The notes under the pieces: generated by a model
The model's input: the letters and a program-made list of their open reading frames with translations, nothing else
Told to the model about the DNA's origin: nothing
Databases searched by the model: none
Made by a program: the position numbers and the translations under genes
Sequence record: PQ863256.1
Length of the DNA: 64,000 nt
From: Escherichia phage Ptacy1479
Strand: one strand, 5' to 3'
Shown: in pieces, positions 272-63,626 of the stretch
How positions within the stretch are numbered: the first letter of the stretch is position 1
Layout of the letters: every line of letters begins with the position of its first letter

Positions 272-763
272 ATGGATAACGTCGCATTGCCACCTGTACA
301 ATTAAACTTAAGCCCAGCTGGAATGGAATTCATCATGAAGCATGAGGGTATGAGAACCAAGGCTTATAAAGATTCCGCAGGTATCTGGACGATATGTGTA
401 GGGGCTACGCGCGATATGAATGGTTATCCGGTTAGGCAAGGATTAACATATTCTATAGAGGATTGTCTAGCTCTGCTAGATAGAGACACACAAGACTCTG
501 TTCGTGCTACTCAGAAAAACATAAGGGTTCCTTTGCTAGTTCATGAATTTGATGCACTCACATCCTTCAATTTCAATGTTGGGGGCGGTGCACTAAGCAC
601 ATCTAAGCTGAGGAAAGTTATCAATGGAGAAGTTAAGGGTGACATATACTCAGAGTTTCTTCGTTGGGATAAAATTACGGTGAAAGGAAAGAAGCAGAGA
701 AGTCAGGGTCTTCATAACAGAAGGGTTGCGGAAGCTGATCTTTATACCGAAGGTAAATATTAA
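272..763 (+). CDS. endolysin, phage lysozyme (GH24, lambda R / P22 gp19 / T4 e type)
   Basis: Motif HEGMRTKAYKDSAGIWTICVG matches the lysozyme catalytic region (E...D...T); FNFNVGGGAL and RRVAEADLY segments; strong RBS GAAAGGAGG. Confidence 0.85.
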   Translation: MDNVALPPVQLNLSPAGMEFIMKHEGMRTKAYKDSAGIWTICVGATRDMNGYPVRQGLTYSIEDCLALLDRDTQDSVRATQKNIRVPLLVHEFDALTSFNFNVGGGALSTSKLRKVINGEVKGDIYSEFLRWDKITVKGKKQRSQGLHNRRVAEADLYTEGKY

Positions 764-4643: not shown

Positions 4644-5654
4644 ATGGGTGCAGGTGGTTTTCGTAAGAACACAGGTCGCAACAACACCACACTCCCGTAC
4701 AACGTTGGGTTTCTCAATAATGTACAGGATACAGAAAATTATAACGTAGCCGTATACGATGAATTACAGAAAGTAAGTACAGCTACTAATCAGATGTTCC
4801 AAGCTATAGATGAAATTCATGATGAAATAGATGTTCGTATCAAAGCTCTAAATGCGATGAATCTACAGTTTGATGAACTTGAGAATAGAATCACTACAGA
4901 GATTGAAACTGCTATTGCAGATATTCAAACACAGATGGGTAATCTATCCACTGATGACATTTGGGATAACTCGGTACAACCACCTGTCAAGCTTGAAAGT
5001 TCTATCTCAGGGATTAAGACTAGCATTGAAGGGAATGATCTAAAGATTCAAACTGTGCAAGGTATCGTCAATGACCAAGGGGAGGAGATAGCTCTAGTTC
5101 AAACAGAACTCACTTCACAAGGGCAACAGATTACCGATGTTGATGGAAGAGTAACTACAGTTCAGAACTCTCTTTCTCAGTATATGAAGCTATCTGAATA
5201 TGAAGCTACTTGGGGTGTTAACTCTTCTGTAAACGGAAAATATGCTGGTGTTAAATTAACTAACAATGGAGTTAACAGCCAATTCCAAGTAACAGCAGAT
5301 AAATTTGTTGTTGGTAATGGAACAACAGGGAACACTCCTTTTGTTTTTGAAAACGGTAGAGCAAAAATGGAGTTTGCTGACATAAAGAACGTCAACATAA
5401 CTACTGCTCAGATCGCTAACGCTAGAATACAGTGGGCCCAAATTGATAATGTCAACATCACAAACGCACAGATTCAGAGTTTGTCCGCTGATAAAATTAC
5501 AGCTGGTTCTATGAGTGGGTCTAATTGGAGACTAACTGTTGGTGGTGATTTTGTCATGGGTGGTACGGGTGGTTCTCAGTTGTGGATGAATGGAAACAGA
5601 ATAGATTTTTATGATGGAAGTGGTGTTCTCAGAATAAGAATAGGGAGTTGGTAA
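4644..5654 (+). CDS. tail fibre-like protein with coiled-coil region
   Basis: Start moved to ATG 4644 preceded by GGAGG and downstream of the terminator; heptad-like N-terminal half, beta-rich C-terminal half with repeated NVNIT(N/T)AQI segments. Confidence 0.4.
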   Translation: MGAGGFRKNTGRNNTTLPYNVGFLNNVQDTENYNVAVYDELQKVSTATNQMFQAIDEIHDEIDVRIKALNAMNLQFDELENRITTEIETAIADIQTQMGNLSTDDIWDNSVQPPVKLESSISGIKTSIEGNDLKIQTVQGIVNDQGEEIALVQTELTSQGQQITDVDGRVTTVQNSLSQYMKLSEYEATWGVNSSVNGKYAGVKLTNNGVNSQFQVTADKFVVGNGTTGNTPFVFENGRAKMEFADIKNVNITTAQIANARIQWAQIDNVNITNAQIQSLSADKITAGSMSGSNWRLTVGGDFVMGGTGGSQLWMNGNRIDFYDGSGVLRIRIGSW

Positions 5655-7501: not shown

Positions 7502-8554
7502 ATGTCTTTATTTGGAAAATCAGCTTCTAGCAAAACCACAGTGGCTCCTTCCTCTCAGGTTGATGCCCTGCTGAAGCAGATTGTTGCTAATGCTCAGAAT
7601 ATGCAGAACAACGATCCGGGATTCATTTCCCAACAGCTGGCTGGGTTTAATGGCAACCAACAGGGTGCTCTGAATAATTTGGCAGCTTCTACAACTCAGA
7701 AGCAACTAGCTGATATGTACACGCCTCGTACTCAGCAAGGGTTGGACCAACTAAACTCTCTTGCCCAACAGTATCAGGATATCATAAACGGTGGCGGTAT
7801 AACTGCTGATGGTGTTAATAACTTTAATAAAGGGTTGAATAATTCAGCTCTTGCTCAAGCCACTAGTAAAGCAGCTTCCAACGTATCTCTCGGGAATGGC
7901 TCTGATTCAGGTTCTCTTCGTAGAGCTGCTGCTCAGGGTGCTGCTTTGAATGGTGCTAATACAAACCTAGCTCGAACTATCAATGGAAAGAATATGGGAA
8001 TTAATGCCCTTCAACAAGACCAAAACTTCCAGAGAGGGTTACTTGGTGCTCAGTCGGGGTTAGCTGGACAGAATCTTAATCTTGGTGCACAAGGTGTTCA
8101 GGAAACCCAACAAGCTATCCAGAATCAACTCTTGGCTGGTAATTTACAACAGCGACAAGATCAAGCTCAAGCTGACATTAATTGGCAGAATGCTATTGGC
8201 TCTAGGCAGTATGGATGGAATCAGCTTAACAACCAGCTTAATGTATTAAACAGTGTAAGTCCAATGGCTGGATATACAATTAAGAATGCCGCTCCGGGTG
8301 TTAACACAGGACAGCAGATTCTTGGTGCTGGTATTACTGGATTAGGTATTGCAGGTCGTATGGGCGCTTTCTCTCCTAACCAGCAGACTCAAAATGCTTG
8401 GAGTTCCTATAACAACTCAGGTGGGCAATCTGGAATGGCTGGTCCTATGATTGGAGGTTCTAATCTCTCTCAACAGAGAGGTCAGTCTAACTGGTTATCC
8501 ACAGCAGGTAGTAATATCTTAGGTGGTGTCTTAGGGGCATTCGGAGCAAACTAA
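7502..8554 (+). CDS. Gln/Asn/Gly-rich internal virion or ejection protein
   Basis: 350 aa low-complexity Q/N/G/A-rich ORF with RBS AAGGAGG; paralogous to next gene. Confidence 0.4.
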   Translation: MSLFGKSASSKTTVAPSSQVDALLKQIVANAQNMQNNDPGFISQQLAGFNGNQQGALNNLAASTTQKQLADMYTPRTQQGLDQLNSLAQQYQDIINGGGITADGVNNFNKGLNNSALAQATSKAASNVSLGNGSDSGSLRRAAAQGAALNGANTNLARTINGKNMGINALQQDQNFQRGLLGAQSGLAGQNLNLGAQGVQETQQAIQNQLLAGNLQQRQDQAQADINWQNAIGSRQYGWNQLNNQLNVLNSVSPMAGYTIKNAAPGVNTGQQILGAGITGLGIAGRMGAFSPNQQTQNAWSSYNNSGGQSGMAGPMIGGSNLSQQRGQSNWLSTAGSNILGGVLGAFGAN

Positions 8555-11271: not shown

Positions 11272-14200
11272 ATGGCTAACATTAAACCGTGGGAAGAAGC
11301 TTCCAAAGCTCCTGCGTATCTGAATGCCTCTCCGGAGCAACAAGCTCAAATGAGAGAACAATATAAGGCAGCAGGTGGCTCTATTCCTGAGGAACAACCA
11401 GTAGCACAACCACAACAAGAAGAACGTGGTGCTATAGGTGAGTTTGCTCAAGGTGTGTCAAATGCTCTTCAATCTGGTGGTGCAAATATTGCAGCTAGTG
11501 CTGCTAAAGGTATTGGTGGTTTAGTTGAGATTGGTGAGAATCTAGCTGGAACACAAACTAGTTATGGTAAGCGTATCCAAGAGAACTCTCAGAACCTTCT
11601 GAAAGAGCGTATGGATAAGATTGAGGATGGGGTTGGTAAAACTGTTGGTCAGTATGCTGGCGTTGCTGGTGATATTGGTATGACTGTTGCTAACCCATTG
11701 GCTGCTGCTGCTATCATCGCAGGTCGTGAGACAGGCCGTGCATACGCAGACCAAACCCCTGAAGAGGGAGAAGATAAGTCTATTCTAGATGCGGCCTTAG
11801 TGGGTGGTGCTAACTATGCGGCTCAGAGAATCCTTCCGGGTGCTGTTGGTACGGCTGAGTCCACACTTGGACGTATTGGTCAGAACGTTGCTAGTAACGC
11901 AGTGGCTGGTGCTAAAGGTGGCGCTCTTGTCGGTGCTGCTGAAGTTCAGAACAAGTATGGCGATGATAATGATCTAGCTAAGACATTGGAAGGTGTTATC
12001 GAAGAAGGTGCTATGGGTGCTGCATTCGGTGGTGCAGTTGGTGGGGTTCATGGTTTGATTAGCCGTCCGGATTCTGCTGTCTTCAAGAATACTCCAGAGT
12101 ATGCGAAGACTGATATTGCTGCTGATGATGAACTAATTCGCAGTGCTAAGAATATTGATGAATTGAAAGAAGCCTATTCTAAAGCTGAAACTGCTAACGC
12201 TGCTTCTGCTCTGAATCTTCTGGATGAGAATGGATTCCGTATTACAGATGCTGTTGCTGTAGATTCTCCTGCTGCTCAGCGTATTCTTAATACTGACCAA
12301 GCTCGTGCTGAGAAGGCTGCTTCCGTTCAGAAAGAACATTCCAACATTCCGGGCCTTAATCCTTTAGCTTCTCCTGCTAAGACTCGTGGTAAAGCCTTCG
12401 CTGATAACGAGCACAACCAGAAGCAGGCTGTTGCTATGAAGGATGCAATGGCTGATTACACCAAAGACAACACTAAAGCTCTTACGGATGTTCTAGATAA
12501 CCTAGACCGTGAATTAACATCTCTCCGAGCTTCTGGTGATTTTACTGGTAGTCCGATTGATATTAAGAATCGTACACAAGCCGACCGTGACTTCATTGAT
12601 GCTTACAAGACTTTCTACAACGAAGCAAACAGATTCAAAGCTCGTGAAGGTGAAGACTTTAACAACTTTGTAGAGAAAGCTGCTGAACTACAGAAGATGG
12701 CTGATAATGTCTCTCCAGAGATGAAGAAAGCTATCAGTGGGTTGAAGAAACTGAAAGGTATGCCTGAAGGTTTTAATCCTATCCAAGATGCTTACACTCT
12801 GAACAATACAGCTAAGTTCATGAGCAACCAAGATCGTGGTTGGACTTCCCTGACTGATGATGGATTCCGTGAGGCTTCTTCACCTAGTCTGGTAATGAAT
12901 ACTCTTGGTGCTGCTAAGTATGCTCTGAATCGCTTCTCTTCTCAGCGTGCTCGCTCTCAACGTGTTAAGCAACAAGAGTCTAACAGTGAAGCTATCCGCT
13001 CTCTTGCTCGTGGTGATTTGGAAGTTGCTCGTGCTAAATCTACTGCCGAGGAAGCTCGTGCTAGGATGGAAGAAGAACCAGTTGTTGATGACATTAAATT
13101 TAAGACGCAAAATGACGTAGAAACCGAACCGGTTCGGGAGCCTTCTTCTAGTACTGTGACGGAAGAAAATCTTCCTTCTTCTGCTCCTCAAGAAACTCCT
13201 CTTACAGCTCGTGATTTAGTTGCTCAAAGACGTGCTATCCGTCAGGCTGAACAGCGTCGCGCTGAAGAAGAGGCAGCTGCTGCTCAAGAAGCTCCGGTCG
13301 AACAAGCTCCACAGGCTGAACCTCTCCCTGCTCGTAACCCTCTAGAGGAGCGTCGTGCAATGGAACAGCAACGTGCTCAAGAAGAGGCCGCACAGGCTCC
13401 AGAACCAGCCGTAGAGGAACCAACAGTCAAAGCTGAGCCATTACCTGCTCGTGCTCCTAAAGCTCCTAAGGAAGCTGTACAGGACGTTAAACCGGCAAGT
13501 GGTGTAGAACGTTTAGCTGCTATGTCTAGTGCTGCTCGTCAGGCTACCAAAGATCGTGCAGAACGTTTTGCCCGTTCTCTGTACTCTAAGGCTGCTAAGG
13601 CTAAAGCTACTGCTGAAAACTTCTTGGCTTATAAGGGTGATCCTAAGGAATTGATGCGTCGTATTCGTCAGGAAGACAATGCTATCAATACTGAACGTCA
13701 TGAAGAAATGGCTCGTAACCAGCTGGCTTCTCAGCAAGGTATTGCTACTGCTAAGAACAACACTGTACGAACTAATTTTGCTGAATGGGTTAAAGAACGT
13801 GGTCTGCCAGAAGACATTGCTACTAAGGCATTACGTGCTGAAGAGAAAGGTTTAGGTGGGAACGTAACTAACTTGGATAGTCTGAAACGCCGTGCTGAAA
13901 GGTTGTATCAGAAGCAGCGTGAGGATGAATTTGATAGACTGTACCAACAGGCTCTAGAAGAGAACAAAGCTTTCGATAACAAGAATGCTCCTAAACTGAT
14001 TGACCAGAAGAAAGAGCTTCAGTCCGAGATTGACGCTTTGATTGATTCAGAACCTTTACGTCCTGCTCAGAAAGATGCTATGCGTAAGCTGATGAATGAT
14101 TTTGTAGATGGGAAGTTTAAATCTTCAGAGAAGGCTGGTAGGGAAGAGGCTTTGGAAGTTGGTCAGATGAAGGATATTTGGGATGGGTTTATTAATACCT

Positions 14201-15693
14201 ACAACAGAGAAGTGAATGCCTTCAACAAAGCTAACAAGAACTCTCAGTACGAAGCTGCTGCTAAGCACTTACAGGCTCGTGAAGAACGTCTTGCTACCCT
14301 CAGGAAAAAGGCTCAGGCTCGTTCAGATGCTAAGGCTGCTGTTGAGAATGAACGTAAAACTCTAGAGGCTATTGCAGCTCAGAAGAGTGAGATTGAGAAG
14401 ATGATGGAAGGTTTACCTAAACCTGTTCGTGAGGCTCAGGAATCTCGTACATTGAAACAGTTGGCTGCTCACCACGATAAGAATTCTCCAGTTCCTCCAG
14501 AGAAATTCCGTAGTTATATTGAACGTATCCACAACGCCGAGTCAGATTACCTTGATCGTCAGCGTCGTTTAACTGATGCAGAGGAAGATGCTCGTCAGGC
14601 TAAGTGGAATAAGATGTATGAGCAAGCGGAAGAGATGAACCGTAAGTTTGATGTGGACAAGAGAGTTAAGCGCAGTGAAGAGCTTAAAGCGGCCCAAGAG
14701 CGTGAGAATGACCTTATGGCAGTACAACGTCAACGTGATGACATTCATCGCCGCCTGATGCGTACTATGGAAGATAAGGGCATATCTAGAGAGGATGCTG
14801 AAGCATTTGCTGGTTCCTATATGGACAACCGTTATGCACTTCTTGAGAAGCCTATGACTCCTACTGAACATCAGAATGCTCGCTCTCGTATCGAAGCTGA
14901 TGTTGAGAAGTTTGCTAAGAAGTACGAATCAATGACTCCTATCGAGAAAGAGATTGTTAAGGTTACTGGAGATACTGAAGGTAAGCTTGATAACTTGGAT
15001 GCGGATACTAGGAAGGCTATTGAGGAGGCTCAGAAGGTTGACTCTGATATTAAGAAACTGCAAGAGGAAGAGATGGAGATGGAGAAGATTCGTTCTGCTC
15101 TGCCTGACGATGAAAGATCTCAAGCAAATTCTGATATCTTGGAAAGCATTAAACAACAGGAAGAGGTCTTTGCTGATAAAGTAGAGAAAGCTTTCTTGAG
15201 TGGGAAAAGCTTGGATGAATTGGTTAGTGTGGCTGAAGTTTTAGACAGGGTTCATGGTGCAGATAAGGCTGGTAACAACCGTCGCTTTGTACGTGCATTG
15301 CAGACTGCTGCTGAAAACAAGAAGAAGTATGGTGATAATCCGGTAGCTTGGTTTAGTGCTGATGATTACTCTGCCATTGCTAAACTTGGTGCTTCTTCCG
15401 CAGGTGGTAACAAATCCAGAGCACTGGAGAAGATCTTTGGTTCTACAGCTGAACAGGCTAAGAGTAAGTTGCTTGGTAGGGATGATGTAGCGAAGATGAG
15501 ACGTGTGATTGAAGAGAACCCTGATATTAAGATTCCTTCTTACAAGACAACGAATCGTACTGAGTACTTGCAGTTCTTGGAGAAGTTTAATGACGAAGGG
15601 AAGCCGAAGATTAAACGTGGCTCATTGTCAGAGAAGCTTGAACGCAGTAAGCGTCAATCGAGACTCCGTGTAAGAGTTCGACCTAAGGAGTGA
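11272..15693 (+). CDS. very large charged coiled-coil virion or ejection protein
   Basis: Start at ATG 11272 with RBS AAAGGAG; about 1470 aa, E/K/R/A-rich with internal AEPLPAR(N/A)P repeats; function unassigned. Confidence 0.45.
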   Translation: MANIKPWEEASKAPAYLNASPEQQAQMREQYKAAGGSIPEEQPVAQPQQEERGAIGEFAQGVSNALQSGGANIAASAAKGIGGLVEIGENLAGTQTSYGKRIQENSQNLLKERMDKIEDGVGKTVGQYAGVAGDIGMTVANPLAAAAIIAGRETGRAYADQTPEEGEDKSILDAALVGGANYAAQRILPGAVGTAESTLGRIGQNVASNAVAGAKGGALVGAAEVQNKYGDDNDLAKTLEGVIEEGAMGAAFGGAVGGVHGLISRPDSAVFKNTPEYAKTDIAADDELIRSAKNIDELKEAYSKAETANAASALNLLDENGFRITDAVAVDSPAAQRILNTDQARAEKAASVQKEHSNIPGLNPLASPAKTRGKAFADNEHNQKQAVAMKDAMADYTKDNTKALTDVLDNLDRELTSLRASGDFTGSPIDIKNRTQADRDFIDAYKTFYNEANRFKAREGEDFNNFVEKAAELQKMADNVSPEMKKAISGLKKLKGMPEGFNPIQDAYTLNNTAKFMSNQDRGWTSLTDDGFREASSPSLVMNTLGAAKYALNRFSSQRARSQRVKQQESNSEAIRSLARGDLEVARAKSTAEEARARMEEEPVVDDIKFKTQNDVETEPVREPSSSTVTEENLPSSAPQETPLTARDLVAQRRAIRQAEQRRAEEEAAAAQEAPVEQAPQAEPLPARNPLEERRAMEQQRAQEEAAQAPEPAVEEPTVKAEPLPARAPKAPKEAVQDVKPASGVERLAAMSSAARQATKDRAERFARSLYSKAAKAKATAENFLAYKGDPKELMRRIRQEDNAINTERHEEMARNQLASQQGIATAKNNTVRTNFAEWVKERGLPEDIATKALRAEEKGLGGNVTNLDSLKRRAERLYQKQREDEFDRLYQQALEENKAFDNKNAPKLIDQKKELQSEIDALIDSEPLRPAQKDAMRKLMNDFVDGKFKSSEKAGREEALEVGQMKDIWDGFINTYNREVNAFNKANKNSQYEAAAKHLQAREERLATLRKKAQARSDAKAAVENERKTLEAIAAQKSEIEKMMEGLPKPVREAQESRTLKQLAAHHDKNSPVPPEKFRSYIERIHNAESDYLDRQRRLTDAEEDARQAKWNKMYEQAEEMNRKFDVDKRVKRSEELKAAQERENDLMAVQRQRDDIHRRLMRTMEDKGISREDAEAFAGSYMDNRYALLEKPMTPTEHQNARSRIEADVEKFAKKYESMTPIEKEIVKVTGDTEGKLDNLDADTRKAIEEAQKVDSDIKKLQEEEMEMEKIRSALPDDERSQANSDILESIKQQEEVFADKVEKAFLSGKSLDELVSVAEVLDRVHGADKAGNNRRFVRALQTAAENKKKYGDNPVAWFSADDYSAIAKLGASSAGGNKSRALEKIFGSTAEQAKSKLLGRDDVAKMRRVIEENPDIKIPSYKTTNRTEYLQFLEKFNDEGKPKIKRGSLSEKLERSKRQSRLRVRVRPKE

Positions 15694-15699
15694 TAAAAG

Positions 15700-15742
15700 A
15701 AAAGCCCTCAAGGAGAAATCCAAGAGGGCTTTATTTGTTTCT
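15700..15742. terminator. bidirectional rho-independent terminator at convergence of + and - gene blocks
   Basis: Stem GCCCTC...GAGGGC followed by TTTATTTGTTTC on + strand and a T-rich run on - strand, directly after stop of 11272..15693. Confidence 0.5.
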
Positions 15743-16057
15743 AAGTTTTAAAAACCATCAAATTCGTCATACATCCCAATTCTCTTCAGAGGTCTGGATG
15801 TTCATCTTCAAAGCACCCTGAGATGCCTCCGTAGAACCAATCTGATTTACTTCCAAGAATAACAACCTCTTCATTCATATAACCCCCTTAGATTGTGTTT
15901 ATAAAATTAATAAGCTTCTCTTCACTTTCATCAAAAGCTTTTCCAGCTGCTTCCATCTCCCAAGTATCGGCATTGTCAATAAAGCTCTGAGCTTCTAATA
16001 GATCGTGGATTAAGTCGAAGAGTTTATTTTTATCTGATTGTGTGATCATGTCAGTTC

Positions 16058-16282
16058 CTAGATTAAATCGTAATACTGAATAATGTCAGAGAGTTTGAAC
16101 TCTCGAACCTCATCTTTCTCTACATCTATCGCTGTCATAATCCAACAAGGTTTGCCACCATTATGAAAACGGGAGCTAGCAACGGAGGTTCGGAGTGGAA
16201 TAACGGACCGGTCAGCAACCTCGCCTCTCCAATTGCGATAGCGAAAGCGAAGCACTTGTTGCGTAGATTTTTGATCATCACT
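16058..16282 (-). CDS. hypothetical protein
   Basis: ORF starting at internal Met (MSDDQK) abutting upstream HNH gene stop. Confidence 0.3.
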   Translation of the reverse strand, partial: SDDQKSTQQVLRFRYRNWRGEVADRSVIPLRTSVASSRFHNGGKPCWIMTAIDVEKDEVREFKLSDIIQYYDLI

Positions 16283-16679
16283 CATTTCCTTTTTTGAATT
16301 GTTTTCTTGCATCATTTTCCATCTTAGTTTTAATCTTATGACAAGGGTCTTTACACAGAACTTGAAACCCATCTTTCTCACACAGAGCACGAGAGATTAT
16401 TTCATCCCAAGTGGCTTCATGGTCAAGAGGAACTATAGGCTCTATGTGATCAATAGCCATATCCTTTACAGGGTGGTCAGAACCACACATGGCACACTTA
16501 AAGTGCATTGCCAGTCTACCTGTCTTTGGATTAATCTTCTGCTCTGTCTTGGCGTCTGCTAGTGCATCGAACATGGGCTTCCACTTTCTAGTCAGAGAAC
16601 GAATCCCTGACTTGATGAAAGAGTTGTAACGAGCTTCAGTCCACATTCCACTACAGCGAGTCTTCTCAGACTTCGCCAT
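16278..16679 (-). CDS. HNH endonuclease
   Basis: Cys/His pattern CAMCGSDHPVKDMAIDHIEPIV...LCKDPCHKIK consistent with HNH nuclease motif. Confidence 0.55.
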   Translation of the reverse strand: MAKSEKTRCSGMWTEARYNSFIKSGIRSLTRKWKPMFDALADAKTEQKINPKTGRLAMHFKCAMCGSDHPVKDMAIDHIEPIVPLDHEATWDEIISRALCEKDGFQVLCKDPCHKIKTKMENDARKQFKKGNE

Positions 16680-16858
16680 AATCAGCTTCTTCCCAAACTC
16701 GTTTGTTTACACGATGGCTCACTTTGCCCTCACGAGGAATACGACCAGTTCGCTGATCAAACAGTTGATGTTTAATCTTTTGGTCTTTACGAGATTCACG
16801 ATTGGAGGAGTTTTCATCATATGAACGATAATCAAATTTACCCATTATAATATCCTTA

Positions 16859-17677
16859 TTACCAAGATTTATCTAACCATGTCCAGTCGAACAGGTCTTC
16901 CGGAGTCTGACCAACAAAGAGTAGCCGAGCATTCTCAAGCATCTTCTCTTCATCTTCAGTATCGAACTTCTTATAATATTCCATTCGTACTATATGATAC
17001 ATGGTCCACTTATCTGTAACACCAGCCAATAGTTTAGCTGCTGCTTTCTTCCCTATTCCTTGACGTCGAAGCTGGAGCTTACCACCCCACATAACTTCTT
17101 TACGTTCTCCACACCCGGGGATATTATCTGTACCATCTCCAATAAGCATCTGATAGAAGAAATTTTGCCATGAAACTAAATCAGATACGTAGTGAGGAGG
17201 AACCTCTTTCTGTCTTTCTCCACAAGCCCAACGATAATGCCATCCGGGAGTTATCAACAAATCTTTGTCTCTAGTACAGATGATAGTGTTCTTATCTCTA
17301 CGTTGCCTTTCAGCTAGTGCATCATCAGCCTCTCTCCCAAATACATCTATGTATTCATATTTACCTTTAATGTAATCACCAACGTTTTGCCAGTGAAAAG
17401 GCCTTTCTCCGGGAGGTCTATTTGCTTTGTAGTCTTGCTGCTTAGCAACATCGAAACGGAAGTTACCACCTTCGCTGAAGTAGAACACAATCTTACTACA
17501 ACCTGATCGAGCTATGATTGTATCAATCTTATACTGAAGTCGTTCAATCATGAAATTGTAATCAACTGGAACACGTCCTGTGTCAAGAAAGGGATGCTCC
17601 TGAGTAAGAGCACCCACTTCATATCGAAGAACGTCAGCATCCACTATAGCTACTTCAGGGAGCTTAACGTCTTCCAT
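16859..17677 (-). CDS. 5'-3' exonuclease (FEN-type / T7 gene 6-like)
   Basis: Motifs IVDADVLRYEVG and IGDGTDNIPG typical of 5'-3' exonuclease PIN and H3TH regions. Confidence 0.7.
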   Translation of the reverse strand: MEDVKLPEVAIVDADVLRYEVGALTQEHPFLDTGRVPVDYNFMIERLQYKIDTIIARSGCSKIVFYFSEGGNFRFDVAKQQDYKANRPPGERPFHWQNVGDYIKGKYEYIDVFGREADDALAERQRRDKNTIICTRDKDLLITPGWHYRWACGERQKEVPPHYVSDLVSWQNFFYQMLIGDGTDNIPGCGERKEVMWGGKLQLRRQGIGKKAAAKLLAGVTDKWTMYHIVRMEYYKKFDTEDEEKMLENARLLFVGQTPEDLFDWTWLDKSW

Positions 17678-23472: not shown

Positions 23473-25280
23473 TCAGAGGCCAGAGGACATTCCATGTTCA
23501 AGTACTCACCCGCTTTCTTAACACAAAGCTCAGTGTGTTCTTTGAGTTTCTGTACATCATTACGATTCACTGAGAATTGGCCCTCATCATGCATATCAAT
23601 TACCTTAGCACAACGAACCCCATCCCTCTCAATCCACTTGTTTAGGAACATCATAGCATATTTCATAACAACAGCACCAGCACATTGCAGTAGAGTGTTA
23701 AGTGCTTTATGAACCATAACCTTACCAGTGGCATCTCGTCTCATTGTAATCTTACGACCATCAACACCAATCAAGTATCCTTGAGCAGCTTTCTCTGTCA
23801 TACGATCAATGAGGATTGCAATACATGGGTTCTCTGCCAAGAAACGTGCTCGCATCACTGAACCTTCTTCAGCCCCACCACCTACAATTGAACCAAGCTT
23901 AGCGTCGCCAGCACCGTAGTTGAATGCATAGATAAATGTTTTAGCGTTGTCACGAGTAGGAAGACCAGCAAGTTTCTGGTTATGGGAGTGGATATCACCT
24001 TCAAGGAGAATATCACGATACATAATAGCAGAAGCTAAACCACGTTCTGCCAGAGCTTTCTTAGCCGGATTGTTCTCTTCAATTGCCTCAGCAAGCATAT
24101 CTCTACACTCTTTAATGAGGTAGTGAGCGAGCATACGAAGTTCAAGTCCAGAACCATCATACCCTAAGAATACTTCTTTACCAGCGGGTATGTAATATTT
24201 GTAAGCACCTACAGGTTTGTCTTTCTTCCTCGGCTTACCTTTCTCATAAATTACGTTAGTACCTTTTCGTATATAACAACCATCAGGAACAACGTTAGTA
24301 ATAACGAAAGGACGAGAATGATCACTGTCTGAGTTATAGTCAGACTCAAACAAACTGCGACACTCGTGACCAAACAAACCACGGGAGGGAATATTAACCA
24401 CGATACGATGTTTGAATCGAAAAGTTGGCGTAGCGCAGCTGTTAGCTTCTGCCGAAAGTTTACCATCTTCGCGTTCCTTTGCTATGAGTCCACTGATAAG
24501 ACCTAGCCTGTGAGCCGCTACAACGCGTCTCTTAAGCAAACTTCCGACACTCCCTAGATCACCCCCTAGCCCCTCTTCAAGAGTCTCCTCGAGGTTTGTA
24601 GGAGCTGTAGGCCACTTATTTGATGTGGCTAGTGCTTTCTTAATCTCATCAAACGTTACAGGATTACGGCGATTAGGGTTCAATCCCAAACCAAATACGT
24701 AAGCCTTCATATAGTTCTTAGTTTTAAACCTGAAATGCTTTTCTAAGAACTTCTTAATATCAGCGTCAACCATCTCGGCTGTCTGCTTTTGCTTAGCATT
24801 GCCTCTCATCCAAGCAGTATACCATGCTTGGTATGTTCCATACTTTCGCATATCTTTCTTAATTTCGAAAGTATTCCAAGGTTTCTTAGATACGTTAAAC
24901 TCTGGAGGAAGAAAGCCCTCATCCATAAGAGCCTCTTTAACTCGTGCATCTTTCGATGGGTCAAAGTCTACGTATTCGACACAGGTGAATGCTCCACCAA
25001 TATCTTCTCTCTTCAGCCCAACCCTATCACAATAGGCTTGAGGCCACTTCTGTAAAGCTCCAGACTTCTTAAACGGCTTCATGTAAGTAGAGCCATCTAA
25101 TCTCATCTTAGGTAAGAGAGGAATCAACTCTCTGTCAATATTAACAATAATCTCTTTAAGGAGGTGAACATACCACCGAGCATTTCTTCGGTTGAAACTC
25201 ACTCCGTGCTTTGCTTGCTTAGAGATTATATCAGCGACAGTCATCTCTGTCAAAAATGGAAGAGCGTCCGGGTTGCTCAC
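23436..25280 (-). CDS. DNA polymerase family A, polymerase domain only (split polymerase, part II)
   Basis: Motif A GYDGSGLELRMLAHY, motif B RDNAKTFIYAFNYGAG, motif C IDMHDEG; no exonuclease motifs in this ORF. Confidence 0.85.
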   Translation of the reverse strand: MSNPDALPFLTEMTVADIISKQAKHGVSFNRRNARWYVHLLKEIIVNIDRELIPLLPKMRLDGSTYMKPFKKSGALQKWPQAYCDRVGLKREDIGGAFTCVEYVDFDPSKDARVKEALMDEGFLPPEFNVSKKPWNTFEIKKDMRKYGTYQAWYTAWMRGNAKQKQTAEMVDADIKKFLEKHFRFKTKNYMKAYVFGLGLNPNRRNPVTFDEIKKALATSNKWPTAPTNLEETLEEGLGGDLGSVGSLLKRRVVAAHRLGLISGLIAKEREDGKLSAEANSCATPTFRFKHRIVVNIPSRGLFGHECRSLFESDYNSDSDHSRPFVITNVVPDGCYIRKGTNVIYEKGKPRKKDKPVGAYKYYIPAGKEVFLGYDGSGLELRMLAHYLIKECRDMLAEAIEENNPAKKALAERGLASAIMYRDILLEGDIHSHNQKLAGLPTRDNAKTFIYAFNYGAGDAKLGSIVGGGAEEGSVMRARFLAENPCIAILIDRMTEKAAQGYLIGVDGRKITMRRDATGKVMVHKALNTLLQCAGAVVMKYAMMFLNKWIERDGVRCAKVIDMHDEGQFSVNRNDVQKLKEHTELCVKKAGEYLNMECPLASDCQIGLNWMHTH

Positions 25281-45566: not shown

Positions 45567-46760
45567 TTATTTTCCTAAAAATAATCCGCTCATAACACCA
45601 TCCCACTCAGAGGACGGAATCACTGAATACTCCGAACTTTGGTCCAGAGTTCCACTACTAAATCGCTGAACAATGTTATAGATGTTGAACAGATCTTTAG
45701 TCTCAGCACGAATGCCGTAGATTAACCTGTCAGCTGTTCTTTCATTTTTAGACACGCGACGGGTAAAGTTAACCAAAAGATTATCACCTTTAAGTATCTC
45801 TGACCCATCTTTTACTAGATCGGGGTGCATCACTGGCAAGAACATTGAGTTGTTAACTCGCAATTCTGCTGTTTCGTCGTTCTCATAATGAATCCACTTA
45901 AAGTCTTCATCACGGAAGTGACCGCATCCATCTCTGTATGACTGTTGACGCCAAGGAACTTGAAATGCTTCAGCGTATTTATCAGCCATGCCGACTGTAA
46001 ACAGCGACGCTGGGAAGATACAAGCATCCCAATCGTTACCAACCAGAGTTGCTTTCTTTTCCCCTAAGAGGTTAGTGTAAGTGCTAACCATTCGTGAGTA
46101 AGCATAAGCCTGAAGGATTGTCCAGCCTTCAACCAACCATTTATGAAGGAAGGTTTCAACTTGACTCTCTTCATCTTCACAATAGAAGGTTCGGTCTAGC
46201 ATCAAATAGAACAGACAACGATCAGCAGGGATGTTCTCAGTTGCTACCCCCATAAAACCTTTCTCGTGCCAGCGTAAACAGGAGGGACGATCTTTATCCA
46301 CAAATGCTTCCATAGCTTCCAGTACAGCACGAGGTGTGGTTCGATGTTCAGGGTTTTTGTCGTTCCAACGTTCGATGTTATTTTTAAGCTCGCCTTCATG
46401 ATCAATTGCACCCCAACCTAAAGCTGCGGATATAGGTTTTTCATCACGCCAACGTCTAAAACCTAACATCTTCATGTGAGTTCCGGAGTTCCAGATATGC
46501 TTGATTTTACACATATCCATCTCTCGGCTTAATAAGAACTCTTCCCCATCAGCACTACGAACGTTAGCTTCTTCATGCCACACTCGAACGTGCATATTCC
46601 ACCCATGAGTTGCCTCATACATGTTAGGGTCGAAGTATTCATCTTCGTCATCATCTTCATCAACGCCACCATTATAGTTGCGAAGCTGAAGGAACCCATA
46701 ACAAGGAGGATTGACCGTTAAAACATTACCTTCAGTATCTTCTAATGTTACTGGAAACAT
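45567..46760 (-). CDS. hypothetical protein in amidoligase island
   Basis: 397 aa ORF, first large gene of the island. Confidence 0.4.
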   Translation of the reverse strand: MFPVTLEDTEGNVLTVNPPCYGFLQLRNYNGGVDEDDDEDEYFDPNMYEATHGWNMHVRVWHEEANVRSADGEEFLLSREMDMCKIKHIWNSGTHMKMLGFRRWRDEKPISAALGWGAIDHEGELKNNIERWNDKNPEHRTTPRAVLEAMEAFVDKDRPSCLRWHEKGFMGVATENIPADRCLFYLMLDRTFYCEDEESQVETFLHKWLVEGWTILQAYAYSRMVSTYTNLLGEKKATLVGNDWDACIFPASLFTVGMADKYAEAFQVPWRQQSYRDGCGHFRDEDFKWIHYENDETAELRVNNSMFLPVMHPDLVKDGSEILKGDNLLVNFTRRVSKNERTADRLIYGIRAETKDLFNIYNIVQRFSSGTLDQSSEYSVIPSSEWDGVMSGLFLGK

Positions 46761-47134: not shown

Positions 47135-47742
47135 ACTTACTCCTGTTGTTTACACTCGTCAATAACCCACTGATAAGTGGATTGCTCAGAAAAGAAACAC
47201 TGAATAAATCCAGATGTTCTCTGCGTTACCAGTGCTAGTGCACAAATCACTACCGCTGCTGCTAGCAGTTTTAAATCTAATTTAGACATATTTCCTCTCA
47301 TTGAATTTAAAAAAGGACTCTCCGAAAAGAGCCAAGCTTTAAATCCAAAAAAAAGATATTACCCAATATCTGTGGATAACCTGCTCTTAAAATATCTATC
47401 CGACGGATGTTTGAGGAACACTCCTCGCCCTAGCATCGGCCCCATACGGGAAATATATTAAGATTAGGTTAGTTGAGTCAGAATAACTCACATAGCCCTC
47501 CGAGGAAGGCTATAGGCGTTACTACAACTAAAAATCACCTGATTTTACAAAACTATCACTAAGAATTTCGTCAATCTCTTTGCTAGTCAAATCTTTCCTG
47601 AACCAGCAACAAGGAACATCCACTCATTGACCAGAGTTGTTCTCTACAGAACATCGATTCCCTGTCTTACTCTTGCATTTATAGGATTTTCCTTTATCTA
47701 GGCGATAGTGTAATCTGTAAACGACAGACACAAGTGTTATCA

Positions 47743-47976
47743 TCACTCGCCTTTCTTAGCACGATCTTTGGCAGTTTTGCCAGTGCGGATTCGATGAGAA
47801 ACGTTAACCAGAGTGCCACCATCAACTACGGTAACGCTCTTGTTTTTAGCCAGATCGAACACAGTCTTCTCTGTGCCGCCCAAGCGAATTTGCTTAGGCT
47901 CGCTGAAGGTTTGGGTTGATTTGGATTGGAACTGGAACGGTTGACGGATTGCGTCGATTGCGCTTACTTTAGACAT
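47743..47976 (-). CDS. hypothetical protein
   Basis: 77 aa ORF. Confidence 0.3.
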   Translation of the reverse strand: MSKVSAIDAIRQPFQFQSKSTQTFSEPKQIRLGGTEKTVFDLAKNKSVTVVDGGTLVNVSHRIRTGKTAKDRAKKGE

Positions 47977-49563: not shown

Positions 49564-49597
49564 TTCAATAAAATAGGGGGAGGGGACGAATCCTCCC
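49564..49597 (-). terminator. rho-independent terminator
   Basis: - strand stem GGGAGG-ATTCGTCC-CCTCCC followed by CCTATTTTATTG. Confidence 0.4.
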
Positions 49598-51505: not shown

Positions 51506-51580
51506 TGGCGTTCCCTCGTGGAATCGAACCACGAATAAGAGCTTAGAAGGCTCCAGTTATATCCGTTTAACTAAGGGAAC
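51506..51580 (-). tRNA. tRNA-Arg(UCU): tRNA-Arg (anticodon UCU)
   Basis: Manual fold: acceptor GTTCCCT/AGGGAAC, D-stem GTTA/TAAC, anticodon stem GGAGC/GCTCT with loop CTTCTAA, T-arm CGTGG-TTCGATT-CCACG, discriminator G, encoded CCA; 75 nt. Confidence 0.8.
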
Positions 51581-53120: not shown

Positions 53121-53153
53121 AATTAAAACAACAAAGGCCGCCCGAAGGCAGCC
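53121..53153 (-). terminator. rho-independent terminator
   Basis: - strand stem GGCTGCC-TTCG-GGCGGCC followed by TTTGTTGTTTTAATT, right after stop of 53159..53410. Confidence 0.5.
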
Positions 53154-53158
53154 TCTCT

Positions 53159-53410: not shown

Positions 53411-53856
53411 GAATCCAGAAGCCTTCCAGTTTCAGAGCACCATTAGCTACTGCATCCATACGTTCAGGGCGGTTCATACGTTTGGTTGATACTTTCATAC
53501 CTATCTCTCTTTGTTAGTGGAGGCATTATTGCCAGTTGATATAAGGGATAGCCCTAGTCAGTAGACTAATCCTGACCGCGTACTCATTGCCGACCTTCTC
53601 TGCCTAAGAGTTCAGGTTCTAGAGCTATCTCTTATTCCAACTGGTGAAGACTCCCTACCCCTAGGAAGTCTCCTAAATCCCAAACCAATACGTACCCCTA
53701 CATATCGGAAAGTCTATCGAAAATTAACAGGTTTTAGTCTAACACCGGATGTTCGAGCAAGCTCTCCCTAGCGGTGCGGCATATGCCTGATTGATATAGT
53801 TAATGAGGAACACCCTCACATAGCCCTCTGATAAACACAAGGGCTATAAGTCGATG

Positions 53857-54168
53857 TTACTTAACTGATTCAATCATTTTACGAACGTTAGCCACACCTT
53901 TCTGAATCAAAGGCAGGAACTCATCACCCAAACTAGAAGATAGAAGACTCAAACTCCCCGTCTTAATGCCACGACATGCTGACTCTACTTCTTCCGGCAA
54001 CAATGTCATATTAAACCACGGAGATTTAATCTCTACTGTAAATCCGGGGTTATATCGGCTCTCGCTATGATTAAACTCCAGATAGGTAACACCGGAGCAG
54101 TGTTTCATTTGAGCACGAATTGTTACAGCGGGCTTACATATCACAAAAGAAGAAACAGACATAATCAC
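53857..54168 (-). CDS. hypothetical protein
   Basis: 103 aa ORF. Confidence 0.3.
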   Translation of the reverse strand: MIMSVSSFVICKPAVTIRAQMKHCSGVTYLEFNHSESRYNPGFTVEIKSPWFNMTLLPEEVESACRGIKTGSLSLLSSSLGDEFLPLIQKGVANVRKMIESVK

Positions 54169-55655: not shown

Positions 55656-55854
55656 ATTATTTACCCTTTATCAGAGATTAAAAGTAATATTATTTAAGTA
55701 AGTTATATTTAGTAAACTTATTTTCTAAGAAATTTTCAAAGGGTCTATATACAGAGCATTACCCATAGTCCCAGAATACTACCATCTTTTTCAATAAATT
55801 TACTAAGTGGTTGGTTTATAAAGGAATTTAGTTTGTCAAATCTGGCACTAGTGA

Positions 55855-56244: not shown

Positions 56245-56630
56245 TAGCTGGGCCGTTGTTATCAGAACTTGCTACCTCCTGTTTTACGGGCATAAAAAAG
56301 CCCCAGCCGTAGCCGGGGCAAACCTGAAAGCAACACATGACCGTTGCTATAAATACACTCGCAAATGCACTTACAGCAACGCAAAAAGCCGCTCAAAGGC
56401 GGCTATGCGGAAGCTTCAAATGGGGAGAGGGCACGGCGCGACAGAAAGAGCGTCATAGTACTAAAAAGAGAGACTATTGGAGAGGTTACTTATTGCCTTC
56501 CTTAATGCCTTGTTTTCTTGTTTAACCAATTCGTTTTCTTCTTGCAAGGATGCTACCAGATGGACCAGAACATCAACTACTGCATCACCTTGCCGCATCT
56601 CTCTGACTTTATTTAGAATCTCTGAATAAA

Positions 56631-57798: not shown

Positions 57799-57900
57799 CT
57801 TTGATTAGATTCTTTGATTAATGCACTGAATCAATGCACTGATAAAAGAAAAGGCGCTACCCGTTAAGATAGCGCCTTATGTTTATTCAAATTGTCTTAC

Positions 57901-59634: not shown

Positions 59635-59858
59635 TAAATCTATCAGCGTGCTTTCTCACGCTATGCAACTGTTAGCCGTTGTTGCGCTTTTCACTGAAGC
59701 GGTGATTTGCTTAGTGAGTGCTCATTATGAATCATGTTGTTTTCGCTGTCAACCACTTTTTTAATCTTTTTTCGTCGTTCCCGCTATTGGGAGGATATAT
59801 CAATCAGCTTTATTTGATTGAGGATTAAGCGGTGAGGCTTAACTTATGATTCATATTG

Positions 59859-60181: not shown

Positions 60182-60278
60182 GATTTTTCAAGTCATCGCT
60201 GACTTTGCTCATTATGTATCAGGCTTTTTTCGGTGTCAATACTCTTTTTAAGAATATTTTCACTTTCTAGCCTGATTT

Positions 60279-60288: not shown

Positions 60289-60745
60289 TAGCACTTTCAT
60301 TGTGCGTCTTACTGTCGGTATTCCTACCGCTCCCCGTTGAAGCCTTTTACCGTGATGCTAATCACCTATCGAGGAGTTTTTACTTCTTGTTGCTTACTGC
60401 TTACTACGGGATTCATATTAATATATAGGAAAATCTTGTCAATACCCTTTTTTCAAATTATTTTATATCTTACTGTTTTATAAAGGAATTTATTTTAGGG
60501 AGGATAGGAACTACAAAGAAATCAGGGGATAGAGGAACGGGCGCGCGTGATACATCATAAGAAACGGCTTGTAAAGCAATAATAAGCGGCCTATAACGCA
60601 TCACAACGAGCTAAAGGGGAGTAAGGCATACAATCACCCTATAAAATAGAAAAGCCTCGCATAGAGGCTTATAGGAAGGATTAGAGAATCAGATAGATTA
60701 TGACCATAGGCATGACTACGGCACAATAAAGAAGAAAGAGTAAGC

Positions 60746-62843: not shown

Positions 62844-63626
62844 TTTGTTAATCCTTTTGGTTGATGAAAAACTACAAACTACACTCGCAACTATATATTA
62901 AAGGAAAAAGCTGTCAACCATTTATTTTCTAACTTTCTTGCATCTTACTGAAAACTAAAGGAATTTAATTTACTAAACTTCCCATACTCAGAGAATCAGC
63001 TTACTGACTATTGTTACTTTATAACACTAATCCTACGGGTAGCAGACCAACATACCAGGGCAAACGGGGATACAACAACCGCAGAACAGACCACGGGGAA
63101 ACATGCCAGATAGTGCGGTAATAATATACCACTTAAATAATTAGTTAACTATTAATGACTCAAACATCAAATACCCTTCGCTTACGCTCAGGTACGCTGA
63201 AAAAGAAAGTAATAAAAGAAACAATAAACATCAAACATAATCTTTCCACTTGATTAATACATATATCATTATTGCACTCATAATCATTACTATTGAAACT
63301 ATTTACAATCAAACTATGGGGGAAGTGGGCTATTACTTATGGGTATTATTAGACCTGTTATTATCACGCCTTAACAGAGTCTAGCCTTTCTCTCACTCTT
63401 TAAAGGGGTACTAAATAAACGGGTAGCTAATGAATAGGATGTTATACACGGGGAAAGAATAACGGGGAGTAGGCACGGGGAAAGGTGGAACGTTGAAAGG
63501 GAAGGTAAAGGCATTGCCAATAACCCTTTTTTAAATGAGGACTCCCCCTTTTTAGGAAACACGCGGGAAGCGGCTAGCCCCACTCGGTCAAATCAGAATT
63601 TTAAACTGTTATATATAAGGTTGAAT
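62844..63626. other. divergent intergenic region with G-rich ACGGGGA iteron-like repeats
   Basis: About 0.8 kb without ORFs, between - strand gene 61971..62843 and + strand genes from 63627; ACGGGGA at 63064, 63093, 63448, 63462, 63475. Confidence 0.5.

Follow-up and report, generated by a model that had tools for sequence, protein, structure and literature searches.

What is carried by the long non-coding gaps that interrupt the early genes of phiEco32-like phages, and in what way could it act? The question arises from a stretch of 64,000 nucleotides (nt) of Escherichia phage Ptacy1479 (sequence record PQ863256.1), called the window below, in which a preliminary description had noticed a hairpin shared by two long intergenic regions and had suggested a common regulatory site or a small RNA. 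The window comes from a podophage of the phiEco32 type (Kuravirus, Gordonclarkvirinae), and ~97 phage records match both regions with 80-99% identity. Both regions (gap 1 and gap 2 below) are situated within the leftward early gene cluster, with flanking genes on the minus strand; this minus-strand cluster is transcribed early by the host sigma-70 RNA polymerase (PMC8948821; PMC4281155). It is concluded here that the gaps very probably contain two paralogous copies, A and B, of an undescribed, conserved RNA motif of five helices and 123-137 nt, located within the leftward early polycistronic messenger RNA (mRNA).

Both hairpins described earlier are present: CTCACATAGCCCTCCGAGGAAGGCTATAGG occupies 47487-47516 of the plus strand (47488-47517 in the preliminary description), and CCCTCACATAGCCCTCTGATAAACACAAGGGCTATAAG occupies 53813-53850 of the same strand (formerly 53811-53848). 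On the minus strand the gaps have in common the 12-mer GGGCTATGTGAG, which occurs exactly twice in the 64 kb (47487-47498 and 53815-53826); by our estimate, two gaps of ~400 nt would share roughly 0.01 such 12-mers by chance. The two gaps can be aligned on this strand for ~125 nt past the hairpin and differ at matched helix positions. The hairpin CACATAGCCCT is helix P1 of a five-helix RNA motif on the minus, i.e. gene-sense, strand. There are 8-10 base pairs (bp) in P1, 4-6 in P2, 3 in P3, which bears an RUAU loop, and 6 in P4, within which lie a 7x7 internal loop and P5. Thus, the hairpin is indeed shared, but it is merely the first of five helices, and the best-conserved part is the internal loop 60-110 nt downstream, CUAGGGM/RAACAUC, which forms the invariant heart of the motif. 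Core lengths among homologues are 120, 122, 123, 127, 128, 130, 135, 136 and 137 nt. P1 is not an intrinsic terminator, being followed by GUGAG instead of U residues, and the terminator scan did not report it.

The paralogy of the copies was examined with a covariance model, R1, built from the copy-A sequences of eight kuraviruses and four Salmonella phages of the genus Moazamivirus, with no copy-B sequence among them. R1 finds copy B at full length in every kuravirus (54-72 bits) and gives exactly two hits in the window, with no third copy. Covariation was assessed in 40 distinct sequences aligned to the model; this alignment is fitted to the model and its sequences are related, and nevertheless the exchanges separate lineages that were found independently. 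Standard pairs occupy 97.9% of cells, against 84.1% in column shuffles (none of 500 reached the observed value) and 34-48% when the partners were slid by 1-3 columns. Both sides change in 15 of the 26 pairs, including five of the eight pairs of P1, where 100% of cells are paired. Examples are the exchanges in P3 (G-C/C-G, 22:18), in P4 (G-C/A-U, 23:17, and A-U/C-G/G-C, 17:16:7) and in P5 (C-G/G-C/A-U, 19:17:4).

The nucleotides that close the loop next to P5 also covary in a non-Watson-Crick manner: A..G was found 23 times, C..A 15 times, A..A twice and C..G never, and the switch between A..G and C..A recurs within copy A, within Moazamivirus and between copy-B subtypes. According to base-pair isostericity (Leontis-Westhof), this pattern is expected of a trans Hoogsteen/sugar-edge ('sheared') pair, and the closing pair together with the neighbouring G.A would be expected to give a tandem 5'-GA/5'-GA arrangement beside P5. 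The remainder of the loop, CUAGG/ACAUC, is invariant in the kuraviruses, in Moazamivirus and in the best Citrovirus-like copy.

Several properties indicate on which strand the motif is read. The helices contain 54 G.U pairs and 6 A.C mismatches in the sense strand, the model scores ~22 bits on the reverse strand against 148 on the sense strand, and fold z-scores are better on the sense than on the antisense strand (minus-strand values of -5.06 for 250 nt of gap 1 and -3.49 for gap 2). A coding test failed, the length steps not being multiples of three and the helix substitutions being compensatory, and stop codons shut all three frames within ~20 nt of the 5' edge of the core. Small open reading frames (ORFs) crossing the core, of 31 and 33 codons, were considered and rejected; they lie in differing frames relative to the conserved motifs and have non-triplet indels. 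By the strand signal, the non-triplet lengths and the stops, the motif is therefore an RNA in the early-gene sense and not a peptide gene, and since the covariation is strand-specific, an origin by chance or at the level of DNA only is unlikely.

The carriers belong to three phage families, all infecting Enterobacteriaceae, and their distribution is patchy. Across Kuravirus and Suseptimavirus, copy A keeps 86-99% nt identity. In the SU7, 4E8 and KBNP1711 groups the RNA stays at 86-94% nt identity where the adjacent 397-aa protein has 41-46% aa identity; on this comparison the RNA is under stronger constraint than the protein. One copy each, with 68-73% nt identity, was found in the Salmonella phages 7-11, SE131, SeKF_80 and pSal-SNUABM-01 (Grimontviridae, Moazamivirus). 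Scanning GTDB genomes by pattern gave a full-length homologue in a 48.7-kb contig, L104 (JBOFGJ010000684.1; 51.9 bits under R1), in which P1 and P4 are wholly rewritten yet paired, and the loop is intact. The proteins of L104 group with those of Citrobacter phage CVT22, Erwinia phage Pecta and Klebsiella phage Klyazma (Zobellviridae, Citrovirus), and weaker copies are present in Klyazma (27.4 bits, E=5e-5) and CVT22 (21.6 bits, E=1e-3), in gaps that begin at the upstream stop codon. L104 is placed in a Flavobacterium metagenome-assembled genome (MAG), and a kuravirus-like contig from the same GTDB scan, L108 (CALKAR010000070.1; copy A with 153 bits), in a Peptococcaceae MAG; both are probably misbinned. 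At least six small early ORFs of L104 (1978-5668) share an acidic C-terminal tail, D/E-E-E-N-E.

Pattern scans of IMG/VR and JGI metagenomes gave just kuravirus- and Moazamivirus-like contigs besides chance hits, and a 14-mer scan of IMG/VR gave mostly chance hits. R1 found no copy in the HK022 and P22-like loci, nor in the 712-nt unannotated gap of phage 7-11 (37134-37846) downstream of its phi32_112 homologue. With Rfam 15, the whole window at gathering thresholds gave the transfer RNA tRNA-Arg alone, and both gaps at E<=10 gave noise, with at most 20 bits against cut-offs of 38-80. The searched literature does not mention the elements. Hence, the RNA family is new and outside every family tested, and its fold is well supported. 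The structured element common to both gaps is thus conserved in related genomes and covaries, which was the check named in the preliminary description, and the idea put forward there of a shared regulatory site remains plausible on the sequences. Apart from this, two CTAGGG motifs lie 12 nt apart at 24557-24574 (minus strand), outside the early region. The components of the motif and of its surroundings are collected in Table 1.

Table 1. Positions of the RNA motif and neighbouring features in the window (unless other coordinates are named)
Feature	Position	Strand	Remarks
Copy A core, 128 nt	47396..47523	-	AGUAAC, P1, P2, linker, P3, P4 (internal loop + P5), AUAG end; R1 147.8 bits
P1, copy A	47492..47513	-	AUAGCCUUC-CUCG-GAGGGCUAU, 9 bp, without U tract
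P2, copy A, GAGU...ACUC	47475..47489	-	U-A / C-G / G-C exchange at inner pair
P3 mini-hairpin, copy A, CCC-GUAU-GGG	47441..47450	-	RUAU loop conserved; G-C to C-G exchange in 2/3 pairs
P4 (6 bp) + 7x7 loop CUAGGGC / AAACAUC + P5, copy A	47400..47439	-	compensatory P4 pairs 4/6
Copy B core, 123 nt	53739..53861	-	R1 55.8 bits, E=7e-11; UAA of upstream 103-aa gene = nt 3-5 of AGUAAC
P1, copy B	53820..53847	-	AUAGCCCU(U)-loop-(G)AGGGCUAU; second hairpin of the preliminary description
P4 + loop CUAGGGA / GAACAUC + P5, copy B	53743..53776	-	internal loop and P5 enclosed by P4
Gap 1, true non-coding extent	47302-47527		226 nt, mostly covered by conserved RNA and DNA features
Gap 2	53499-53856		no credible ORF
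Small split gene, CPT_Paul_096 homologue (71 aa)	47528..47746	-	TGG->TGA at 47624-47626; outside the RNA
Double DnaA box, TTAAGAGCA-gg-TTATCCACA-g	47370..47390	-	also 3' strand of long-range helix
P6 hairpin of gap 1, AGAUAUU-GGGU-AAUAUCU, then U8	47347..47371	-	absent in 3/4 aligned Moazamivirus phages
Intrinsic terminator GGCUCU-UUUCGG-AGAGUCC + U6	47309..47333	-	ends 7 nt before ribosome-binding site of 54-aa gene
54-aa membrane-protein gene after copy A	47137-47301	-	first gene beyond the terminator
Hairpins P6 and P7 of gap 2	53685-53708, 53646-53673	-	each with UAGGGGUA loop; compensatory pairs in both
Terminal module of gap 2	53547..53629	-	outer helix GAUAGCUCUA / UAGGGCUAUC around 67-nt segment
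Counterparts of 47359-47395 at nrdD	E. coli nrdD locus 1196-1242; Salmonella nrdD locus ~720-760		own locus coordinates

The position of the motif relative to genes is constant. Whatever the upstream gene, the element starts at its stop codon or within ~10 nt of it, P1 begins 5-10 nt past this stop in almost every carrier, and the upstream ORF is always co-directional. In copy B of the window, phiEco32, WFI101126, SU7_A, 4E8_A, SE131 and SeKF_80 the stop UAA itself forms nt 3-5 of AGUAAC / AAUAAC, and the upstream genes differ. The first part of the element can also be paired in another way: in an alternative helix P0 around P1, AGUAAC (47518-47523) pairs with GUUAUU after P1, the 5' part of P2, and so excludes P2. 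In copy B the corresponding partners are AACAYC and GRUGUU, seen as C-G, U.G and U-A, and RNAalifold preferred P0 over P2 in the alignments of both copies. Stacked on each other, P0 and P1 amount to ~15-17 bp of irregular helix, interrupted by an internal loop.

This geometry would suit a module of RNA processing or stability: P0 and P1, directly behind the stop codon, would either be cleaved or shield the 3' end of the preceding message, and the remaining gap would be a processing scaffold. Besides the stacked helix and the constant distance to the stop codon, such a role is suggested by the long irregular helix that ends gap 2, homologous to the leader of P22 gene 24, and by the tRNA-Arg (51506-51580, the sole ARAGORN prediction), which needs excision from the same operon. 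The lambda N leader reportedly holds an RNase III site. T7, too, has conserved, paralogous hairpins with internal loops, namely the RNase III sites between its early genes; they immediately follow stop codons on a polycistronic early mRNA that the host polymerase synthesizes. However, these are single irregular hairpins of ~50-60 nt, whereas here the hairpin makes up only a fifth of the element, at its start, and the nucleotides that never vary are found elsewhere. Conservation is highest in P4, the loop and P5 and not in P1; a duplex of ~20 bp with few sequence demands suffices for RNase III, which leaves an invariant internal loop of 14 nt with isosteric covariation unexplained; and the many early genes of the cluster have only two copies among them. 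In our opinion, processing or stabilization is an unlikely role.

The extent of gap 1 itself had to be revised. It had been described as 450 bp without ORFs and seemed about twice its real size because a TGA codon splits the homologue of CPT_Paul_096, a gene of 71 aa that is annotated in phage Paul and also kept in phiEco32, but is interrupted in the window phage by this nonsense change. In the true gap, copy A is followed first by the double DnaA box (Table 1) and then, ~65 nt beyond the core, by the intrinsic terminator. The terminator is kept in Kuravirus and Moazamivirus with a compensatory change in the innermost stem pair and is annotated as a terminator in 7-11, SU7 and 4E8. Its spacing of 7 nt to the ribosome-binding site leaves no room for a promoter, so that the genes downstream of copy A need read-through. 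Between core and terminator, a long-range helix joins UAACCU (47465-47470) to AGGUUA downstream of both copy A and the Moazamivirus copy, with a compensatory extension. Two promoter candidates in copy A were rejected: a sigma-70 candidate within the element (CTGACT-18-TATATT, 47452-47481) has no conserved counterpart in 7-11 or copy B, and for the gp36 promoter (tAATGTAtA) there is a mere 7/9 look-alike, TAATATATT, absent in SU7-type copies.

Gap 1 also contains a segment resembling bacterial DNA. A stretch of 37 nt (47359-47395, minus strand) shares 86-95% identity with the sequence immediately preceding E. coli nrdD. When gap 1 was compared by BLAST with 5426 complete E. coli genomes, 5423 had a single chromosomal hit, situated 14-55 nt before the start codon of nrdD. 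The shared sequence includes tTTAAGAGCAggTTATCCACAg, identical in 21/22 positions to the nrdD double DnaA box, which is bound by DnaA in chromatin immunoprecipitation sequencing (ChIP-seq; PMC11317965 Table 1). The phage site has the layout of a double box, which is defined as two 9-mers 2-3 bp apart, of which one is at or near TTATCCACA. As in the double boxes of E. coli (nrdD, the oriC R4 region, datA, DARS1/2), the spacing is 2 bp, the downstream box is perfect and a G trails it. In contrast to these, the phage box belongs to a virulent phage, lies in a transcribed gap, overlaps an RNA helix and is oriented oppositely to transcription compared with nrdD, and its binding is a prediction. The Salmonella nrdD leader keeps the double box with a different flank, and the Salmonella phages keep the perfect box alone; the suggestion that Moazamivirus tracks its host was rejected, their flanks not following the Salmonella nrdD leader. 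Binding of DnaA is therefore the conserved reading of the nrdD-like stretch. Cronobacter phage GAP52 encodes its own NrdD and NrdG (12156-17160), which contrasts with the look-alike of the nrdD upstream region in kuraviruses.

On the RNA level, the phage sense strand is complementary to the nrdD 5' untranslated region (UTR) over 27+6 contiguous pairs, ending beside the Shine-Dalgarno sequence; RNAduplex over the whole length is uninformative for such long inputs, and the local 27+6 bp alone are meaningful. A released RNA could be imagined that acts in trans, as a decoy or sponge of a host factor or as an antisense RNA: copy A would give ~215 nt from P1 to the terminator, with 47359-47395 pairing to the nrdD 5' UTR. 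Both copy A and the Moazamivirus copies do end, like many small RNAs, in a terminator hairpin and a U tract, the complementarity to the E. coli leader includes flanks that are different in Salmonella, the patchy spread over three families infecting Enterobacteriaceae would fit an accessory module aimed at the host, and the early region is the seat of host-takeover functions. Against this, there is no conserved promoter before the element, the sole promoter-like hit being internal and not conserved, and the likeness to nrdD is largely explained by the double DnaA box at the level of DNA. Salmonella nrdD is not followed by the flanks in Moazamivirus, both the nrdD-like segment and a terminator are missing from copy B and the Citrovirus copies, and the long-range helix ties up part of the complementary segment. 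Since a conserved promoter is missing and the element starts at the upstream stop codon, the RNA is co-transcribed and a discrete form would need excision, so that the earlier idea of a small RNA, taken as an independent gene, is not supported. Action in trans is on the whole distinctly improbable, and antisense action on nrdD is possible only for kuraviruses on E. coli.

The same box raises the possibility that the conserved element works as DNA, i.e. as a protein-binding site, a replication or recombination site (a DnaA-dependent origin or single-strand initiation) or a linker for modular exchange, its hairpins forming in single-stranded DNA or being incidental. Apart from the identity of the box to a ChIP-verified site, the surroundings are AT-rich, and there is a mosaic boundary exactly at the 5' edge of copy B, the match of most relatives ending at 53862. 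DnaA boxes are also in excess: four perfect ones (TTATCCACA) occur in the 64 kb (3046-3054, 8495-8503, 46294-46302, 47371-47379) against ~0.5 expected from length alone by our estimate, and 32 with at most one mismatch against 18.5 ± 4.6 in shuffles. But the box is present in copy A and Moazamivirus alone, not in copy B or the Citrovirus copies; the covariation and the strand-specific excess of G.U favour a single-stranded sense molecule; GC skew shows nothing at 47 kb and just follows the direction of transcription; and the phage encodes its own primase-helicase and polymerase. A function of the motif as DNA must be regarded as most unlikely.

Gap 2, which corresponds in phiEco32 to the space between phi32_112 and phi32_113, has other additions behind its core. 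UAGGG occurs five times in it (53556-53770 and the hairpin loops) against 44 times on the same strand in the whole 64 kb, and the GGUAGGGGUAUC loop is also found in the Klyazma gap (~5215-5250, own coordinates). The UAGGG(G)UA that recurs in hairpin loops is perhaps a binding motif in several copies, akin to the CUAGGG of the core loop. Further on, 53554-53621 (minus strand) matches, with ~80% identity, the leader that separates nutL from the N-like gene 24 in P22-like Salmonella phages (1501-1567, own coordinates). The enclosing helix is maintained by eight pairs that are compensatory between the kuravirus and P22-like versions, and in kuraviruses of the NJ01 and SU7 types a plain hairpin replaces the module. 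The segment had no match in E. coli genomes. A small hairpin and then the ribosome-binding site of the phi32_112-like gene follow. The nrdD-like stretch and the P22-like module are add-ons, belonging to one copy each and lying outside the shared motif.

The resemblance to the leaders of lambda N and P22 gene 24 goes as far as the 3' module of gap 2, where the same outer helix is kept by compensatory changes. It differs from them in that neither gap has a convincing boxA (CGCUCUUUA-like) or boxB, and a lambda-type nut site was accordingly rejected; the sole sequences approaching boxA, each as far from it as the mismatch limits allow, are GGCTCTTTT (terminator stem) and TCCTCATTAACTA (P2). Nor is there an N-like antiterminator downstream of gap 2, the phi32_112-like protein of 46 aa giving no BLASTP alignment to gp24 or N, and the module itself is missing in the NJ01 and SU7 types. 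The prophage small RNA svsR (PMC12803456) was also considered and is unrelated; it maps to the 3' end of cI and not to the matched leader.

A conserved core with a varying downstream platform (a terminator behind copy A and the Moazamivirus copy, and elsewhere hairpins close to the ribosome-binding site) and invariant unpaired nucleotides flanked by covarying helices are also features of ligand-sensing riboswitches and of self-cleaving ribozymes, the latter being common in phage gaps; the internal loop would then be a pocket or an active site. Copy A has the same layout as terminating riboswitches and attenuators, with a folded domain, a terminator less than 100 nt on and a ribosome-binding site. 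It differs from them in lacking a conserved anti-terminator alternative and a common function of the downstream genes, and copy B and the Citrovirus copies have no terminator. No Rfam family matched the gaps even at E<=10, and the element is anchored to the upstream stop codon instead of the downstream start. A riboswitch or ribozyme is consequently very unlikely.

There remains the reading that is preferred here, a structured RNA acting in cis on the early transcript, to which we assign a probability of roughly 0.55. It is supported by the covarying fold and its sense-strand signal, by the detection of copy B and of the L104 homologue with a model trained on neither, by the conservation across divergent phages, by the constant place behind a co-directional stop codon and by the conserved terminator beyond copy A and the Moazamivirus copy. 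While the sequences show the fold, strand, conservation, position and neighbours of the motif, the binding of a factor and any influence on termination are inferred. Its background is the organization of early transcription. Near-consensus sigma-70 promoters (TTGACA-16/17-TATAGT or CATAAT) were observed on the minus strand at 59724-59752, 60211-60239, 60415-60442 and 62890-62917, embedded in repeated blocks of 46-74 nt, and a related repeat block (55787-55834) may be an unrecognised internal early promoter. Strong intrinsic terminators on the same strand of the early cluster lie at 56300-56319, 56387-56404, 57851-57878, 60652-60670, 53133-53156 and 49578-49597. A scan gave 27 terminator-like sites against 13 ± 4 expected, and with so many terminators early transcription must therefore be split into units or read through them. 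Only about a third of phiEco32 ORFs have a homologue in phage 7-11, and the authors of the transcription study of the latter considered an undefined antitermination strategy likely (PMC8948821), a postulate with which a cis-acting motif is consistent.

As a working mode, we tentatively propose an intercistronic regulatory RNA that binds a factor. The RNA would fold as soon as the ribosome clears the upstream stop codon, and a ribosome standing on this codon would presumably block the formation of P0. The purine-rich 7x7 loop, with tandem sheared-type pairs by P5, could then be the site at which a protein docks, be it from the host or from the early genes of the phage, and the bound or folded state would set the fate of the downstream transcript. 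In copy A and Moazamivirus this state would decide between a stop at the terminator ~65 nt on and reading into the next genes, which would amount to antitermination or attenuation dependent on a factor. For copy B, the same state would govern the processing or translation of the composite leader of the phi32_112-like gene and also the passage of the strong terminator at 53133-53156.

Several observations weigh against this proposal. Strong terminators at 60.65, 57.85 and 56.3 kb stand upstream of copy B with no motif before them, and because of these motif-free terminators the motif is not the general antitermination device of the phage. Copy B and the Citrovirus copies have no terminator close downstream, no conserved anti-terminator pairing was found, and no candidate binding protein is common to all carriers. 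The downstream genes differ by carrier (a 54-aa or 50-aa membrane protein, an endolysin, a 46-aa protein) and have no Pfam function. Finally, the motif is dispensable, since it is missing from Cronobacter phage GAP52, which is related to 7-11 and shares its endolysin neighbourhood.

A separate observation concerns the first gene after the motif, whose product in four lineages is either small and hydrophobic or an endolysin that is hydrophobic at its N-terminus (window 47137-47301; Klyazma 5046-5198; L104 3325-3803; 7-11 25222-25647), a pattern that does not extend to copy B or CVT22. Gating of lysis genes was rejected as a function: the endolysin follows the element in Moazamivirus alone, and holin and lysozyme of Kuravirus are late genes (PMC4281155).

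Among known systems, the closest in kind are put of HK022 (putL/putR) and EAR of Bacillus, which act in cis in processive antitermination and are likewise structured RNAs in a long transcript with terminators downstream, put being present in two copies and EAR being intergenic in an operon. There is no homology to put, the best hit of R1 with filters off in the whole HK022 genome having 9.1 bits (E=2.4). The architecture is also different, with five helices and a 7x7 loop against two adjacent stem-loops of ~70 nt. Furthermore, put lies just downstream of the early promoters, whereas both copies of the motif follow ORFs, kilobases from the promoters at 59.7-62.9 kb; strong terminators precede copy B, and the cis action of the motif is a prediction. 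It is rather unlikely that the motif is a cis RNA of the put/EAR class which, alone or with a host factor, makes the host RNA polymerase read through the early terminators of the phage, copy A being coupled to the double DnaA box. If this were true, delayed-early read-through would respond to the state of host DnaA and replication, and the missing antitermination strategy of 7-11 would be supplied for virulent enterobacterial podophages. Conserved intergenic hairpin modules bordering variable small early genes are known also as PeSL cassettes of T4-type phages and as REP elements. PeSL, however, carries an early promoter, of which none is conserved here, REP elements are simple palindromes, and neither has a covarying multi-helix core.

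The significance of the motif is connected with the phage in which it is found. phiEco32 is a model phage for transcription, known for gp36, a sigma factor of its own, and for gp79, which binds RNA polymerase, and the host polymerase has to traverse its terminator-rich early region. A covarying RNA that is better conserved than the flanking protein compared, occurs in three families and has an invariant loop shows features that usually mark a specific molecular partner. The near-copy of the nrdD DnaA site suggests that a virulent phage recruits or titrates the replication initiator of its host, or that it targets the mRNA of the anaerobic ribonucleotide reductase. Even if the motif should prove to be a mere element of processing or stability, it would represent a new family of Rfam grade, and the annotation of these 'empty' gaps would be corrected.

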